A stretch of 64,000 nucleotides of DNA from Enterobacteria phage ATK47, in the sequence record NC_055708.1, one strand, 5' to 3'. Under the pieces are notes generated by a model. It saw only the letters and a list, made by a program, of their open reading frames with translations. It was not told the origin of the DNA and did no database searches. The position numbers were made by a program, and so were the translations under genes. Within the stretch, counting starts at the first letter, position 1, and each line of letters opens with the position of its first letter. Below, in pieces: positions 1,614-55,959 of this stretch.

Positions 1614-1846
1614 GTATAGCAATTTACATTAAATCAGAATCATGTGATAGTTATCTGTACACATATGATAAAGATGTGTCAGAAGAAAAAATCAAAGACG
1701 ACCTTAATACGGACCTTGATATGTTCTGTCCTATTGCAGATTACAAACTTGCGGTCTCTAATAGTGAAAGTCCATCTAAAGAAACGCGCATTGAAGAATT
1801 TATGTCTGAATTAATGGCCAAATCATGGGACCGAGATGATGAGTAA
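1610..1846 (+). CDS. Hypothetical acidic protein
   Basis: ATGA overlap start at 1610; ORF. Confidence 0.4.
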   Translation: MSIAIYIKSESCDSYLYTYDKDVSEEKIKDDLNTDLDMFCPIADYKLAVSNSESPSKETRIEEFMSELMAKSWDRDDE

Positions 1847-2294
1847 GAAAAATAAAGTGAAAGAGCTATCAGCCGGTATTATTTTCCTTACCGAAGATAA
1901 AGAGTTATTCATGGGGCGTGTAACTGGTTCTCGTCCTAAAGGTGCATTAACTCATCGGTGGGATATTCCTAAAGGCCGTGTCGAACCTGGCGAATCTCCT
2001 ATTGAAGCCGCTATTCGTGAATGCGAAGAAGAAACTGGGTTTACACAATATGACCCTGCCTTCCTGAAAGACCTAGGTGAACATCATTACTCAGACAATA
2101 AGAATATTCATCTGTTCCTATATACCATCCCTGTAGAGCACGAGCAATTCAGAAACAGTGTTTGTAATTCCTATCATACATTCCAAGACGGACGACAGAT
2201 TCCTGAATTTGATGCATTCGCTTTAATTAAACCTTCTCAATGGGAATATGTAATGGGCAAATCGTTATATAAGGTGCTCACTACCCTCCTATAA
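1836..2294 (+). CDS. nudE: Nudix hydrolase NudE (T4 e.1 homolog)
   Basis: Nudix box GESPIEAAIRECEEETGF; sits immediately upstream of e as in T4. Confidence 0.85.
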   Translation: MMSKKNKVKELSAGIIFLTEDKELFMGRVTGSRPKGALTHRWDIPKGRVEPGESPIEAAIRECEEETGFTQYDPAFLKDLGEHHYSDNKNIHLFLYTIPVEHEQFRNSVCNSYHTFQDGRQIPEFDAFALIKPSQWEYVMGKSLYKVLTTLL

Positions 2295-4927: not shown

Positions 4928-5290
4928 ATGAAAGCATATCAAATTCTTGAAGGTGAACATAAAGGCACTATTTATTTTGAAGACTGTACTCAAGCCCGGA
5001 TTATTGTCTCTAAGACTTTTAAAGAAGACGCTATTGTAGATCCAGAAATTTTCTACGGTTTGAATGCTCGTGAAATTGAAATTGAACATCAACCTAAAGT
5101 TAAAATTGAAGGTGGTCAACACCTGAACGTTAACGTTCTGCGTCGCGAAACTCTGGAAGATGCAGTTAAGCATCCAGAAAAATATCCGCAGCTGACCATC
5201 CGTGTATCCGGTTATGCAGTTCGCTTTAACTCTCTGACTCCGGAACAGCAGCGCGACGTTATCGCTCGTACCTTTACCGAGAGTCTATAA
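4928..5290 (+). CDS. grcA: Autonomous glycyl-radical cofactor (GrcA/YfiD-like; T4 Y06I-type)
   Basis: C-terminal RVSGYAVRF glycine-radical motif; C-terminal ~60 aa match E. coli GrcA as I recall it. Confidence 0.9.
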
Positions 5291-5514
5291 TGGCTAAATT
5301 GATTATAGAAGGGTCTGAAGATGTTTTAAAATGTTTTGCCGCCTGGTTTAGTTGCTCAGGCGAGCAATCATTCATTGAAGCATTTAGAATGGGTGATATT
5401 ACTGGAAACTATCCGACAACTGATATCACTGTACGTGGATATGGTATTAATGAGCCTATCCAATTGGTCGAATATGACCTTGCCACAGATGAGGAAATTC
5501 CTTATGTCGATTGA
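5290..5514 (+). CDS. Hypothetical protein, 74 aa
   Basis: TAATG overlap start. Confidence 0.4.
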   Translation: MAKLIIEGSEDVLKCFAAWFSCSGEQSFIEAFRMGDITGNYPTTDITVRGYGINEPIQLVEYDLATDEEIPYVD

Positions 5515-5770
5515 AGATATTAAAGGCTACAAGCCACATACCGACGATAAAATCAGTAAAGTGAACGCTATTAAAGATGCAGAAGTCCGTCTTGGATTGA
5601 TGTTTGATGCTCTGATTGAAGAAGCATATATCTTAAAAGAAAATGAAACAGAGCAACAAACCAAAGAAGATATGGATGCAGTGCAGGCTCTTAAGTATGC
5701 TAAGCAACATCTAAAAGAAGCTAGTATGTGGGCTTGTCGTGCGGTATTTCAACCAGAGGAAAAATACTAA
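5504..5770 (+). CDS. Hypothetical helical protein, 88 aa (sits where T4 vs.4 would be)
   Basis: Internal ATG 5504 with SD GAGGAA; position two genes upstream of regB. Confidence 0.4.
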
Positions 5771-6069
5771 TGGCTCAAATCCTATCAGGCTTTGGAACTC
5801 ATTATGAAGCATCTCGACGCATAACTGAAAGCAATCCTTTTGGCCTTGTTCCGAAGCACAAGAAAATTCAAAGCCTTGATGACTTTGAGAATCGCCTATG
5901 GGCCCTCTTTAATGAGTACAAGGCATATCTGAAAGAAGACGCTGACGATTGTCTTGAAGAAGATGAGATTGCGTATTACGAACAACGCCTTGAACAGCTC
6001 AAGAACTTCCACCAGGTTCGTGACGAAGTATCTAAAGCAGTTAAAAAGTTAATTCCTTTCAAAGAGTAG
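5770..6069 (+). CDS. Hypothetical protein, 99 aa
   Basis: ORF, ATG 5770. Confidence 0.45.
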
Positions 6070-6117
6070 TTTACTTCTCCTCTAGTTGTGTTACTATAGA
6101 CCTGTCAACTAGAGGAG
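6069..6117 (+). promoter_or_regulatory. Early promoter-stem-loop element (GTTTAC, TACTAT; inverted repeat ctcctctagttg/caactagaggag)
   Basis: 12-bp perfect inverted repeat; 3' arm carries the regB SD. Confidence 0.6.
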
Positions 6118-6125
6118 AAATCAAA

Positions 6126-6584
6126 ATGACTATCAATTCAGACGTTTTTATCCGCCGCAATAAACTCCGTCGAATCTTTGAAACGGAGTTCCGCAAAATA
6201 AATGCCAGTATAAAAGATGCTGCAAAGTCTCTTGGACTACCAGGCTTTCATATCAAGTATTCTCAACATCTCTTAGATCGTGCCATCCAGAGAGAAATAG
6301 ATGAGAATTACGTTTTTGAATTATTTCGTAAAGTAAAAAATCATGTTAAAGAAGTTGCAGAATTTTTATCAATGCCGGCACGTCCAGATGTTGATGAAGA
6401 TTTTGTCGAAGGTGTAGAATATCGCCCAGGCCGTTTAGAAATAACTGATGGAAATCTTTGGTTAGGACTTACAGTTTGTCGCGAAAATCCGGCATTCAAA
6501 ATGAAGACTCTTCAATGCAGAATGGCTATTATTAACAATAAACGACTACCAGGAAAAGCTTCTAAAGCAGTGATTAAAATCTAG
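6126..6584 (+). CDS. regB: RegB sequence-specific endoribonuclease
   Basis: Strong match to T4 RegB as recalled (MTIN..VFIRRNKLRR..., YSQHLLDRAIQREIDE). Confidence 0.9.
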   Translation: MTINSDVFIRRNKLRRIFETEFRKINASIKDAAKSLGLPGFHIKYSQHLLDRAIQREIDENYVFELFRKVKNHVKEVAEFLSMPARPDVDEDFVEGVEYRPGRLEITDGNLWLGLTVCRENPAFKMKTLQCRMAIINNKRLPGKASKAVIKI

Positions 6585-6592
6585 AGGTAAAC

Positions 6593-7135
6593 ATGAGAAA
6601 AGCACTACTCGCTGGTCTATTTGCTCTTTCATTATCAGCACATAGCTCCGAGCATACTTTTAGTAATGTCCAACTCGATAACTTGAATTATGCTTATCAG
6701 TTTGGGGAACAGTTTTCTAAGGATGGAAAATTTAAAACGCATGAAAATATGCATAAGAAAGGACTTGGATACATAATGGCCGCAATACTATGGCAGGAAT
6801 CATCTGCTGGTATTAATCTTAAAGATAAGAAAGGTCACCATGCGTATGGAATGTTCCAAAATTATCTACCAACAATGAGGGCAAGAATTAACCAGCTTGG
6901 TTATAATATGACTGATGCCCAAATTAAGAAAATGCTATCTAAGCGGTCTAATTCAACCAGATGGGCTTATATCGAATTTTCTTATTGGTTAAATATACAT
7001 AATGGGGATATAAGAAAAGCTATATCCTCATACAATGCGGGATGGAAGACAAGTGCTGGAAGTAAATATGCTTCTGAAGTCCTAGAAAAGGCTAATTACC
7101 TTAAATCAAATAAACTACTGGAAATAAAAGAATGA
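6593..7135 (+). CDS. Secreted lytic-transglycosylase-like protein (SLT domain)
   Basis: Signal peptide; E-S ... GMFQ ... YNAG motifs typical of lytic transglycosylases. Confidence 0.55.
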   Translation: MRKALLAGLFALSLSAHSSEHTFSNVQLDNLNYAYQFGEQFSKDGKFKTHENMHKKGLGYIMAAILWQESSAGINLKDKKGHHAYGMFQNYLPTMRARINQLGYNMTDAQIKKMLSKRSNSTRWAYIEFSYWLNIHNGDIRKAISSYNAGWKTSAGSKYASEVLEKANYLKSNKLLEIKE

Positions 7136-7479
7136 CCAAAATGTTAGCTTTAATAGTTGGCTTGGTTTCATTTAACGCTCTTGCTAATACTACATATACT
7201 GATGTAACGGAGTATACAAACAGAACGGCGTCTGATTATTGTGGTAAAAGTCAAGAGTGTAAAGTAGATTTTTCACAAAAATTGTTATATGCGTATAAAG
7301 ACGGAGAAAAAGATGGGGCGTCTAGTAGGTTCAAGGCGTCTACCTTAATTAAAAGATACTATAAAAAATGGCAAATATTAGAATGCTCGGTGGCGGAACC
7401 TAAAGATAAGGCAGCATGCAATTCTATGGTGGACCGCCTAGTTGACTCTTATACTAGAGGACTTGCAGCAAGTGATTAA
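7132..7479 (+). CDS. Hypothetical secreted protein, 115 aa
   Basis: N-terminal signal-like segment; ATGA overlap. Confidence 0.45.
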   Translation: MTKMLALIVGLVSFNALANTTYTDVTEYTNRTASDYCGKSQECKVDFSQKLLYAYKDGEKDGASSRFKASTLIKRYYKKWQILECSVAEPKDKAACNSMVDRLVDSYTRGLAASD

Positions 7480-7939
7480 AAACTATATCAAGGGCGATAT
7501 TGTCGCCCTGTTTTCTAAAGGTAATAATATTGCTCATGGGTGTAATTGTTTTCATACAATGGGCGCCGGTGTGGCAGGACAATTAGCAAAGGCTTATCCA
7601 AAAATTCTGGAAGCCGATAAACTTCAAACCGAATTCGGAGACGAGTCTAAACTCGGGACTTATTCGGTTTATGAAAAATATTTTAAGACCCATAAAGCTT
7701 ATTGCTTTAATCTTTATACGCAGTTTGAGCCGGGACCTAATTTTGAGTACTCTGCTTTAATGAATTGTATAATAGAATTAAATGAATTTGGAAAGAATAA
7801 GATAACAAAGCCTGTAATTTATATGCCAAGAATTGGTGCAGGTATTGGTGGTGGAAACTGGGATGTCATCGAAGAGATTTTAGATACGTATTCCACTAAA
7901 CTAGAAATTGTGATTGTTGATTGGGAACCGTTATTATGA
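7472..7939 (+). CDS. Macro-domain protein (ADP-ribose binding/hydrolase fold)
   Basis: Motifs HGCNCFHTMGAGVAGQLAKAYP and IGAGIGGGNW resemble macro-domain signature regions; start uncertain (GTG 7472 overlapping the upstream stop, or TTG 7442). Confidence 0.6.
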   Translation: MIKNYIKGDIVALFSKGNNIAHGCNCFHTMGAGVAGQLAKAYPKILEADKLQTEFGDESKLGTYSVYEKYFKTHKAYCFNLYTQFEPGPNFEYSALMNCIIELNEFGKNKITKPVIYMPRIGAGIGGGNWDVIEEILDTYSTKLEIVIVDWEPLL

Positions 7940-8148
7940 ATATACATTATCCACATCCATATGATCCAAAGAATAAGGCAGTAATTATTCGTCAATGGGA
8001 ACGCATTTGTCGTACTAAATGTCCAATTAATAGTCCACATGATGTAGATAAAGACTACATCGGAACATTCGTTGAATATACCTTTATTGATAAGAAAGGC
8101 CGTAAACAACATGTAGAAGAATATTGCTTAAAGGTGACATGGCTATGA
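7921..8148 (+). CDS. Hypothetical protein, 75 aa
   Basis: ORF. Confidence 0.35.
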   Translation: MGTVIMNIHYPHPYDPKNKAVIIRQWERICRTKCPINSPHDVDKDYIGTFVEYTFIDKKGRKQHVEEYCLKVTWL

Positions 8149-8351
8149 GTCAAACAAAAATTCTTACAGGTGCTAAATGCGAAAAATGCGAATGGCCTGT
8201 AGTTTTTGCTTTATGCAATGACGAAATGGCTTGTGATTTTGATTATTGGTGTTACTGTTCGAACAAAGGTTGTAGCAATCATAAAGGTGAAGGGTTTTAC
8301 TCAGGATTTTACCCTTACCCAGATTTCGTTAAAGAAGGTGAACCTAAATGA
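8145..8351 (+). CDS. Cys-rich small protein (possible zinc binding)
   Basis: CEKCEW...CNDEMACDFDYWCYCSNKGC. Confidence 0.4.
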   Translation: MSQTKILTGAKCEKCEWPVVFALCNDEMACDFDYWCYCSNKGCSNHKGEGFYSGFYPYPDFVKEGEPK

Positions 8352-8530
8352 AATTGACTAAAGAAGAGAAAACTAAACTGTTTGAACTTATCCATGACCT
8401 ATTGGATGAGCAAGCAGCCACCAATGCGTATGATGAATATGCTCCTTTGACGGACGAAGAATATCAAGCATTGTTGGAATCATTTGACAGGAAAGAACAA
8501 GAACTCATTGACTACGTGAATTCGTTATGA
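8348..8530 (+). CDS. Hypothetical acidic protein
   Basis: ORF, ATGA overlap. Confidence 0.4.
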   Translation: MKLTKEEKTKLFELIHDLLDEQAATNAYDEYAPLTDEEYQALLESFDRKEQELIDYVNSL

Positions 8531-8712
8531 TTACTCGCCAACAGAAAGAAGAAATAATTTATTTGTCTAATGAAATACGGTTAGCAGAACAAGCTTATGA
8601 ATGGGAACATTCATCGTATTTCTCGTCTAAACTGGCAAAACAACTTGCAACACAAGAATTGGAAGATGCTCAAAAAGCATTGGATGATTATTTAGAACGA
8701 ATTACCGAATAA
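8527..8712 (+). CDS. Hypothetical protein
   Basis: ORF, ATGA overlap. Confidence 0.4.
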   Translation: MITRQQKEEIIYLSNEIRLAEQAYEWEHSSYFSSKLAKQLATQELEDAQKALDDYLERITE

Positions 8713-8720
8713 GGACTCTT

Positions 8721-9302
8721 ATGGCTAGTTTAATTTTTACATATGCCGCTATGAACGCTGGTAAGTCTGCTTCATTACTTACTGCTGCACATAACTATAA
8801 AGAACGTGGCATGGGTGTATTAGTTCTTAAACCGGCTATTGATACTCGTGATTCAAAAGGTGAAATAGTCTCTCGTATTGGTATTCGTCAGGATGCCAAT
8901 ATAATTACAAAAGACATGGATATCTTTGAATTCTATAAATGGGCTGCAGCACAAAAGGATATTCACTGTGTATTTGTTGACGAAGCTCAGTTCTTAACTA
9001 CTGAAAAGGTGTATCAACTTAGTCGTATTGTTGACGTATACAATGTGCCGGTAATGGCATATGGACTACGAACAGATTTTAAAGGTAATCTATTTGAAGG
9101 TTCTCAAGCATTAATGGCTATTGCCGATAAGCTTGTTGAACTTAAAGGTGTCTGTCATTGCGGTAAAAAGGCCACAATGGTAGCTAGAGTCACGGAAGAC
9201 GGACTTCCAATTACAGATGGCAGTCAAATTGAAATTGGTGATACCGATAGATACGTGTCATTATGCCGGAAGCATTGGAATGATTTGACAGGGTTGTTAT
9301 AA
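8721..9302 (+). CDS. tk: Thymidine kinase
   Basis: P-loop NAGKSASLL; strong similarity to T4 Tk as recalled. Confidence 0.95.
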   Translation: MASLIFTYAAMNAGKSASLLTAAHNYKERGMGVLVLKPAIDTRDSKGEIVSRIGIRQDANIITKDMDIFEFYKWAAAQKDIHCVFVDEAQFLTTEKVYQLSRIVDVYNVPVMAYGLRTDFKGNLFEGSQALMAIADKLVELKGVCHCGKKATMVARVTEDGLPITDGSQIEIGDTDRYVSLCRKHWNDLTGLL

Positions 9303-9329
9303 ATACTAATATCTAACCAAGAGGTATAT

Positions 9330-9542
9330 ATGCAGCAATTAAACGAAAGACAACTTCGTAATCTTACTGTAACCCAATTGGATGAAATCCGAAGAGAATT
9401 AGGACATTCTATTTCTCATTTAAACGAGGATATCCGTCAAACTGGTTCTAAAGCTGATTATACACGCAAGCGCAAGCTGGAAAAATACCTCGCAGATGTT
9501 AAGGCCGTCCAAAGGCGAAAAATAAATACTGGCCAAAATTAA
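9330..9542 (+). CDS. Hypothetical basic protein
   Basis: ORF with SD. Confidence 0.4.
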
Positions 9543-9554
9543 CAGGAGGCCTAT

Positions 9555-9857
9555 ATGGCCTTAAGAGCGATAGCTGTCATGGCGATGCTGGGGTTTTTTG
9601 CAGCAACAACTCCTATCGTTGGTACTGCACATATTGACCCATATTTTGATAACTTTATGGAATCAGGGATTAAAAACGTATATACTTTGTTTGAAATTCA
9701 AAATGTCGAGAATTCTGAAAAATTCTATAAGTATATGGCAAAGCATTACAAAAATAGCCCCTGTGATGATGCATTTGAATGTCATGAACAAGGCATAAAA
9801 ACTGCCAGACAATTTGCTGAGTTCATGAAAATAAAATTAGAGCCTACATCTATCTAA
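9555..9857 (+). CDS. rI: RI antiholin (lysis inhibition)
   Basis: Signal-anchor N-terminus; DPYFDNFMESGI...YTLFE similar to T4 RI as recalled. Confidence 0.8.
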   Translation: MALRAIAVMAMLGFFAATTPIVGTAHIDPYFDNFMESGIKNVYTLFEIQNVENSEKFYKYMAKHYKNSPCDDAFECHEQGIKTARQFAEFMKIKLEPTSI

Positions 9858-54711: not shown

Positions 54712-55293
54712 ATGACATGTCAATCTGAACTTCAAGAACGCGAATACCTAACAAATCTGATTGATAGCAAATTCACCCGCCAAGAACAAAACATTCTCTG
54801 GGCTTGCACCGATTCTAAGGAAGACCCAGATTTCCACTATGAATTAGACCGTCTTGTTCGTAAGCATATGACTTCTACAGTACCAGTAGAACTCTACCGT
54901 GGTGTAACTCCAGAAGAAGTAGAACGTCTTTCCCTTCTTTCTGTTGGATGCCATTGGTCTCCTGGACGAGTAACATCGTTCACAACTGATTTCGGTACAG
55001 CTCGTCAATTCTCTGGGAGATGGGAATATCAGACGTACACTATTCTTAGTCTCAGGAATGCTCCATTCATTTTTGATTACTACCAAAACATGGTTAACAT
55101 TGTACTTGCCGGAAAGAATCCTAAGCATGTTATGGAAGAAACGCGTGTTGACGTCCTAGATATGATTGAATCTGAACAAGAATACATGGTCTCAGGTATC
55201 TCTAGATTTGAGATTGTGGAAATTGAAGACTTAGAATATGACCCTTTATCTCGACTATACAAAATCATTCATTTAAAAATGTTGAATTTTTAG
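54712..55293 (+). CDS. modB: ADP-ribosyltransferase, ModB-like
   Basis: YRG (Arg), S-x-T region and E-Q-E motif; paralog of next gene; position soc-side of dda. Confidence 0.65.
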   Translation: MTCQSELQEREYLTNLIDSKFTRQEQNILWACTDSKEDPDFHYELDRLVRKHMTSTVPVELYRGVTPEEVERLSLLSVGCHWSPGRVTSFTTDFGTARQFSGRWEYQTYTILSLRNAPFIFDYYQNMVNIVLAGKNPKHVMEETRVDVLDMIESEQEYMVSGISRFEIVEIEDLEYDPLSRLYKIIHLKMLNF

Positions 55294-55350: not shown

Positions 55351-55959
55351 ATGTTTATGCCGTATAATGAATGTGAAATTGAGGAAATGGTTCGCCGTGC
55401 CCAATGCCCTGAATATCAAGATGAATTGCAGTACGAAATTGATAGTCAATTCAACGATAATGAACAAAGCATCCTTTGGCAGTGTATGGAAAACAAGCCA
55501 GACTGTATTCAACAGGAGTTAAGTTCAATCGTTCGTAGAAATTGGACGTCTTCAGTTCCTGAGACAATGTATCGTGGAATCTCTAAGAAAACTATGGCCA
55601 CACTCGATGATAAAGGCATTGGTAGTATTATTAAATTTGACAGAGTAATGAGCTTTAGTCCGGTGTTTGGTGTAGCACGTAACTTCGCTTCATATAATTT
55701 TTATGGAACATTTAATATGTTCTGCATCAAAGATGCACCATTTGCTTTCAACTTCCGTGAACATATGCTTAACATGATTCTGGCTGCGCCATCTTGTGAG
55801 TTCAATGGAGCTTTCCCTGAAGCGACAAGACGGTCTAATGCTAGACTTATATCTGACGAATGTGAATTTATGCTCCCTATAGGGACTACACTGCGTGTAG
55901 ATTCTATTATTCAAGATGGACGTTATACAATCTGGAATCTGTCTATTGTCGGTTACTGA
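55351..55959 (+). CDS. modA: ADP-ribosyltransferase, ModA-like
   Basis: YRG, MSFSP, E-C-E motifs; paralog of upstream gene. Confidence 0.65.
   Translation: MFMPYNECEIEEMVRRAQCPEYQDELQYEIDSQFNDNEQSILWQCMENKPDCIQQELSSIVRRNWTSSVPETMYRGISKKTMATLDDKGIGSIIKFDRVMSFSPVFGVARNFASYNFYGTFNMFCIKDAPFAFNFREHMLNMILAAPSCEFNGAFPEATRRSNARLISDECEFMLPIGTTLRVDSIIQDGRYTIWNLSIVGY

Follow-up and report, generated by a model that had tools for sequence, protein, structure and literature searches.

Between the vs and tk genes of a T-even phage, a short open reading frame carrying two glycine-rich motifs raises the question of whether the phage encodes a macro domain and, if so, which ADP-ribose modification such a protein would act upon. 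The DNA analyzed here, referred to as the window, is 64 kb in length and is identical, with zero mismatches, to the segment 34525-98524 of KT184310.1, the record of Enterobacteria phage ATK48. This RB69-like T-even phage is placed in Mosigvirus. An earlier note on the window had proposed that the reading frame encodes a macro-domain protein, that it is an extra gene relative to T4, and that it could reverse ADP-ribosylation or counter ADP-ribosylating or NAD-derived defence signalling of the host.

The vs-tk macrodomain gene and its counterpart in T4

In the list of open reading frames, the coding sequence spans 7472..7939 on the plus strand, from a GTG start to a TGA stop (7937-7939), and encodes a protein of 155 aa. 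Both motifs described previously were found in this frame. With numbering from GTG 7472, the first glycine-rich (substrate-binding) loop, HGCNCFHTMGAGVAGQLAKAYP, comprises residues 22-43 (7535..7600, plus strand), including H22 and N25, and the second glycine-rich (phosphate-binding) loop, IGAGIGGGNW, comprises residues 121-130 (7832..7861, plus strand). The earlier note had also given the start codon as non-ATG, either GTG 7472 or TTG 7442, and the comparisons favour the former. GTG 7472 falls in the same alignment column as the ATG of T4 tk.4, base for base, an identical GTG is the RefSeq start in the close relative O157 typing phage 3, and a Shine-Dalgarno-like GAGGA can be read from the sequence 10 nt upstream (7457..7461, plus strand), within the 3' end of vs. 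GAGGA also precedes the tk.4 ATG of T4, T6, and teqdroes. The TTG at 7442 was rejected as a start, as it lies within vs and its 10 added residues were present in no homolog. As a practical point, the gene is missing from the ATK48 GenBank record, which annotates nothing between vs and tk.3; it was probably missed there because of its GTG start. Hundreds of relatives label the same ORF 'macro domain protein' or 'phosphatase'.

That this is a real gene encoding a macrodomain is supported by several independent results, far above chance level. The Pfam Macro profile (PF01661) matched residues 22-136 at profile positions 2-117 of 118 with a score of 28.3 bits, above the gathering cut-off of 22 (E 1.9e-6), while PHROG 335 matched the product with an E-value of 4.7e-67. 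DarG models matched the macro part (NCBIfam E 8e-8, PADLOC E 9e-9), and sequence matches in the PDB comprised BT1257, Poa1p, SCO6735, DarG, and TARG1. Furthermore, an AlphaFold2 model built with 64 homologs as input (mean pLDDT 96, pTM 0.91) predicted a three-layer alpha/beta macro fold, with the two glycine-rich loops lining the ADP-ribose cleft. The closest structural neighbours belonged to the ALC1-like macrodomain class (TARG1, DarG, SCO6735, Poa1p), clearly above other macro classes. The macro-domain call made previously thus holds both by sequence and by predicted fold, and the product, 155 aa long, belongs to the ALC1-like class as a stand-alone macrodomain.

The position of the gene among small early genes between vs and tk was as the earlier note had described. 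The macro gene lies directly 3' of vs, the gene for the valyl-tRNA synthetase modifier (7132..7479, plus strand; PHROG 1256, E 5e-35; 67% identical to T4 Vs), and 5' of tk (8721..9302; 81% identical to T4 Tk). The last 8 nt of vs overlap the start of the macro gene (GTGATTAA), and the ATG of tk.3 (7936..8148, plus strand; Pfam DUF7202, E 1.6e-38; 100% amino acid identity to T4 Tk.3) overlaps its stop codon as ATGA, which together point to one translationally coupled, same-strand early operon. A scan for sigma-70 consensus promoters across 5400-9600 yielded 12 sites versus 14 +/- 3.9 expected from shuffled sequence, representing no excess.

The corresponding slot in T4 has the same order of vs, tk.4, and tk.3. 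T4 Tk.4 (NP_049723.1, 'phosphatase; contains A1pp phosphatase motif') is also 155 aa in length and aligned with 85% identity over 155/155 residues with no gaps; between the two genes dS was about 1.2 and dN 0.09 (dN/dS 0.07). The macro gene is the ortholog of T4 tk.4, also named adfM, with which it has in common its length, its position between vs and tk.3, and its conserved residues. Differences include the start codon (ATG in T4, GTG here), the overlap with vs (4 nt in T4, 8 nt here), and loop 2 (K127 in T4, G127 here), and the host phage is an RB69-like Mosigvirus here and a Tequatrovirus in the case of T4. The observation is correct yet not new, since the gene is the known T4 tk.4/adfM: T4 and hundreds of T-even relatives already carry an annotation for it, and its part in countering DarTG2 was described for T4 in a 2025 preprint.

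The suggestion that the macro gene is extra relative to T4 was wrong, as tk.4 occupies the same slot there. Four genes lie between vs and tk in T4 (tk.4, tk.3, tk.2, and tk.1) and five in the window. When the ORFs from regB to rI.1 were paired with their T4 counterparts, the sole unmatched window ORF was 8145-8351 (plus strand), which encodes a 68-aa Cys-rich product (CEKCEW...CYCSNKGCSNH; PHROG 2306), lies between tk.3 and a tk.2-like gene, and is unannotated in ATK48. This ORF, which T4 lacks, occurs in T2, RB14, and about 740 other phage records, and it explains the earlier gene count of one above T4.

Beyond the window, vs and the macro gene are also adjacent in T4, T6, teqdroes, and Kanagawavirus KLB31, with one gene between them in Karamvirus VIPECLOM01, and Tequatrovirus, Mosigvirus, Kanagawavirus, and Karamvirus all retain the order of vs, the macro gene, and then tk. 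Homologs at E <= 1e-5 were present in 2,798 of 50,697 phage records (about 5%), from phages of many host genera.

Active-site residues and related macrodomains

Residue conservation was examined across 64 homologs, down to 38% identity. The protein was compared with other macrodomains by profile alignment to TARG1 and by MAFFT alignments with DarG, TARG1, SCO6735, BT1257, and PhiKZ gp104. DarG sequences were drawn from Meiothermus and Mycobacterium plasmids carrying DarT-DarG loci, and the chains of T. aquaticus and M. tuberculosis DarG, TARG1, SCO6735, and BT1257 from PDB alignments. For loop 1, C26, G33, and A35 were invariant among the 64 homologs and H22, G23, C24, N25, M30, and G31 nearly so. 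The column of H22 holds SCO6735 His24 and Poa1p H23, and that of N25 holds SCO6735 Asn27, DarG Asn22, and PhiKZ AdfM N23. For loop 2, P119, I121, G122, and G124 were invariant in the same set; G124 shares its column with SCO6735 Gly128, and G126 is found at the position of TARG1 Asp125.

The catalytic position is occupied by Gln84 (codon CAG, 7721..7723, plus strand), in the column that holds the catalytic lysines K80 of DarG and K84 of TARG1 as well as SCO6735 Gln85. Specifically, NLYTQ84 aligned with FPTK80 in DarG, LITK84 in TARG1, FPTK in PhiKZ gp104, and MIGQ85 in SCO6735 and BT1257. Gln84 was invariant in the 64 homologs, and Gln was also present at this column in six homologs from distant genera (Ounavirinae, Pakpunavirus, Asteriusvirus, Polybotosvirus, Ackermannviridae, and Schizotequatrovirus). 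In SCO6735, the Q85A substitution abolished removal of thymidine-linked ADP-ribose from DNA, Asn27 was proposed to lock Gln85, and a water-mediated, backbone-assisted mechanism was proposed (PMC9411070). The alignments indicate that the macro protein carries SCO6735-type catalytic residues, with Q84, H22, N25, and G124 corresponding to Gln85, His24, Asn27, and Gly128. The invariant use of Gln at the catalytic position in the T-even lineage, unlike DarG, TARG1, and PhiKZ AdfM, is the only new point here.

SCO6735 (Streptomyces coelicolor, PDB 5E3B) and BT1257 (Bacteroides, 2FG1/2AFC), both of cellular origin, are only 22-30% identical to the phage protein. The hallmark of the SCO6735/BT1257 subclass is a mobile loop that is five residues longer and contains Lys89 (PMC9411070), whereas the phage proteins show a gap of 5-6 columns there and no lysine. 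Full membership in the subclass was accordingly rejected, since the protein shares its catalytic residues and not its long Lys89 loop. Assignment to DarG proper was also rejected: against NCBIfam NF048014 the protein scored 31.9 bits versus a cut-off of 250, over profile positions 4-146 of 338 only, while true DarG proteins scored 392-466 bits. Lys80 of DarG (T. aquaticus numbering; PDB 5M31, 5M3I, 7OMU) is replaced by Gln84, and the Lys84/Asp125 dyad of human TARG1/OARD1 (PDB 4J5R/4J5S) corresponds to Gln84/Gly126. Furthermore, no DarT (DUF4433) gene lies beside the macro gene, whose neighbours are vs and tk.3, unlike the Meiothermus and Mycobacterium plasmids, on which a DUF4433 gene is directly upstream of DarG.

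Two other phage proteins are informative for comparison. PhiKZ gp104/AdfM (Cell Rep 2026, PMC13309987) is likewise a stand-alone phage macrodomain countering DarTG2, and an Asn is present in loop 1 of both proteins (N23 there, N25 here). It is, however, about 20% identical to the T-even protein, is of the DarG-like Lys type (FPTK), and is imported into the phage nucleus, and its activity has been demonstrated in vitro, whereas that of the T-even protein is predicted. T4 AdfN (gene 30.3, NADAR) follows the same logic of an orphan antitoxin-like ADP-ribosylglycohydrolase deployed by T-even phages against a DarTG system, but has an unrelated NADAR fold, acts on DarT1 guanosine adducts, and has no effect against DarTG2 (PMC11825919). 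On the alignment evidence, the macro protein is best described as neither DarG nor a full SCO6735-type protein, and as belonging to a lineage distinct from PhiKZ AdfM. Two macrodomain lineages thus go by the name AdfM, and they differ at the catalytic position, where T-even phages have Gln and PhiKZ has Lys. It follows that catalytic-dead controls for the T-even proteins should mutate Gln84 or Asn25, there being no lysine to target.

Proposed role against DarTG2 and competing explanations

Published genetics of T4 bear directly on function. In transposon sequencing of T4 on a DarTG2-expressing host, tk.4 was the single significant hit, and a clean tk.4 deletion sensitised T4 to DarTG2, with the gene being renamed adfM (anti-DarT factor, macrodomain); enzymatic removal of ADP-ribose by T4 AdfM was put no more strongly than 'seems likely' (bioRxiv 10.1101/2025.11.20.689424). 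T4 without adfA and adfN had been found to be still DarTG2-resistant, and a further factor was predicted (PMC11825919). PhiKZ gp104, which was independently named AdfM, removes DarT2-made thymidine ADP-ribose in vitro, and its N23A variant is impaired (PMC13309987). No enzymatic assay of any T-even Tk.4-type protein was found in the papers searched. Of the functions suggested in the earlier note, countering a DarTG-type host defence agrees with the deletion genetics of the T4 ortholog, while neither reversal of the ADP-ribosylation carried out by ModA and ModB of the phage nor an effect on NAD-derived signals found support here.

The present analysis establishes the identity of the gene, its orthology, its fold class, and the conservation of its active-site residues. 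The product is most likely an early-expressed, orphan antitoxin-like ADP-ribosylglycohydrolase that strips DarT2-made ADP-ribose from the thymidines of phage ssDNA via Gln84. According to this proposal, the macro gene would be expressed as part of the early vs-tk operon, the host DarT2 toxin would ADP-ribosylate thymidines of single-stranded phage DNA, and the macro protein would strip off those ADP-ribose groups, such that phage replication could go on in DarTG2-carrying hosts. The protein would serve as an orphan antitoxin, lacking the C-terminal domain with which DarG binds DarT, and catalysis would depend on the invariant Gln84, presumably held by Asn25 in an SCO6735-like manner, and not on a lysine as in DarG, TARG1, and PhiKZ AdfM. 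The requirement for growth on a DarTG2 host was demonstrated by others, in a preprint, for the T4 ortholog and not for ATK48. We infer that protection would be enzymatic and that catalysis would proceed via Gln84. Points against a hydrolase are that both the catalytic lysine of DarG/TARG1 and the aspartate of TARG1 are missing, as is the 5-residue mobile-loop insertion with Lys89, which aids the action of SCO6735 on DNA.

The missing canonical lysine is also in keeping with protection mainly by binding or blocking of DarT2, or by shielding of the modified DNA, rather than by hydrolysis. The catalytically dead variants SCO6735 Q85A, DarG K80A, and TARG1 K84A retain the ability to inhibit DarT in vitro, SCO6735 most strongly (PMC9411070), and AdfA and AdfB, two anti-DarT factors, seem to work through toxin interaction (PMC11825919). 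However, the ADP-ribose pocket is strongly constrained, with Q84 and the glycine loops invariant and H22/N25 nearly so, down to 38% identity and across distant phage genera, which fits a conserved small substrate better than the binding of diverse toxins. Furthermore, at 155 aa versus about 350, the protein has no DarG-type C-terminal DarT-binding domain, and binding or shielding as the principal mode of protection is considered improbable. Somewhat less probable still is a main role in the processing of small ADP-ribose derivatives (ADP-ribose-1''-phosphate, O-acetyl-ADP-ribose, and NAD-derived immune signals or toxins), with DarTG2 protection as a side activity. The annotation of T4 tk.4 as an A1pp/macro 'phosphatase' is about twenty years old, but the tRNA-repair route of T4 (Pnk/Rnl1 chemistry) generates, to our knowledge, no Appr>p, and DarTG2 is the only phenotype for tk.4 so far. 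A small-derivative role was proposed by that old 'A1pp phosphatase' annotation and by the Iyer/Aravind survey of viral macro domains (PMC9503650).

The earlier note had further pointed to two ADP-ribosyltransferases (modB/modA-like) in the window, and both are indeed there, modB at 54712-55293 and modA at 55351-55959 (annotation of the identical record; PHROG 832, E about 1e-37). Pfam gave no match for ModA, ModB, or Vs, which were matched by PHROGs instead. The presence of modB and modA in the same window, with all of these being early genes, would suit a write-and-erase cycle in which Alt, ModA, and ModB of the phage ADP-ribosylate or RNAylate host proteins and the macro protein removes these marks. 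Such a cycle is nevertheless highly improbable, since modA and modB lie 47 kb from the macro gene and are unlinked to it, and the closest structures to the macro protein are base- or acidic-residue-specific enzymes. The residue modified by Alt and ModA is arginine, and we know of no macrodomain that cleaves the arginine-ADP-ribose linkage. In addition, despite bearing tk.4, T4 remains subject to strong restriction by the mRNA ADP-ribosyltransferase CmdT (PMC11618068), arguing against a broad reversal of RNA ADP-ribosylation.

Removal of thymidine-linked ADP-ribose made by DarT2 thus remains the preferred function, although the spread of homologs over 2,798 phage records and many host genera counts against it in that it may be wider than DarTG2 alone explains. 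A more speculative extension, possible but doubtful, is that the T-even Tk.4 family represents a third catalytic variety of thymidine-ADP-ribose hydrolase, in which an SCO6735 Gln site is set on a short-loop DarG/TARG1 scaffold and substrates include, besides DarT2 lesions, further base-linked ADP-ribose marks on phage DNA or RNA. If true, this wider range of base-linked substrates would account for homologs in about 5% of phage records.

Additional features of the region

Within codons 7-13 of the macro gene (7491-7509, plus strand), a strong hairpin composed of AGGGCGAT-ATT-GTCGCCCT is followed by GTTTTCT. As RNA, it has a predicted energy of -13 kcal/mol (z -3.5 versus shuffles), and it was scored as terminator-like in a scan. 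T4, T6, and teqdroes share exactly this sequence, though synonymous sites are otherwise near saturation, and the hairpin is absent from the Kanagawavirus and Karamvirus orthologs. It could be a vs/tk.4 attenuator or a by-product of the KGDIVAL codons. In the mutant T4 clone T4_7t1 (OL964745.1, 2501-2948), three 2-nt deletions relative to reference T4 split tk.4 into two short 'macro domain-containing' ORFs, which fits dispensability on laboratory hosts or may reflect assembly errors.

Tk.3 is 100% identical to the T4 protein, compared with 35-85% for the products of the flanking genes, suggesting a recent recombination patch. Downstream, two tandem paralogs of PHROG 653 (8348-8530 and 8527-8712, plus strand) correspond to T4 tk.2 (48% identity) and tk.1 (35%), respectively. 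The second of these (8527-8712) has no equivalent in O157 typing phage 3, which probably explains the 5% of the query 6000-9400 left uncovered by relatives of 99% identity.

At least four conserved ORFs within 3 kb are unannotated in the ATK48 record, namely 5770-6069, 7472-7939, 8145-8351, and 8527-8712 (plus strand), which belong to PHROGs 2037, 335, 2306, and 653, respectively. Many product names in the same record also look wrong: the nrdC.x run is named 'thioredoxin', ModA.2 is listed as a molybdenum ABC transporter protein, and a RegB note is attached to rI.1. A 120-aa protein at 4928-5290 (plus strand), annotated as 'pyruvate formate-lyase; Vs.6', has a C-terminal glycyl-radical motif and resembles the YfiD/GrcA type of stand-alone glycyl-radical spare-part domain. 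Lastly, nudE (T4 e.1; 1836-2294, plus strand) encodes a Nudix hydrolase that is ADP-ribose-active according to the record, and could dispose of free ADP-ribose released by the macrodomain.
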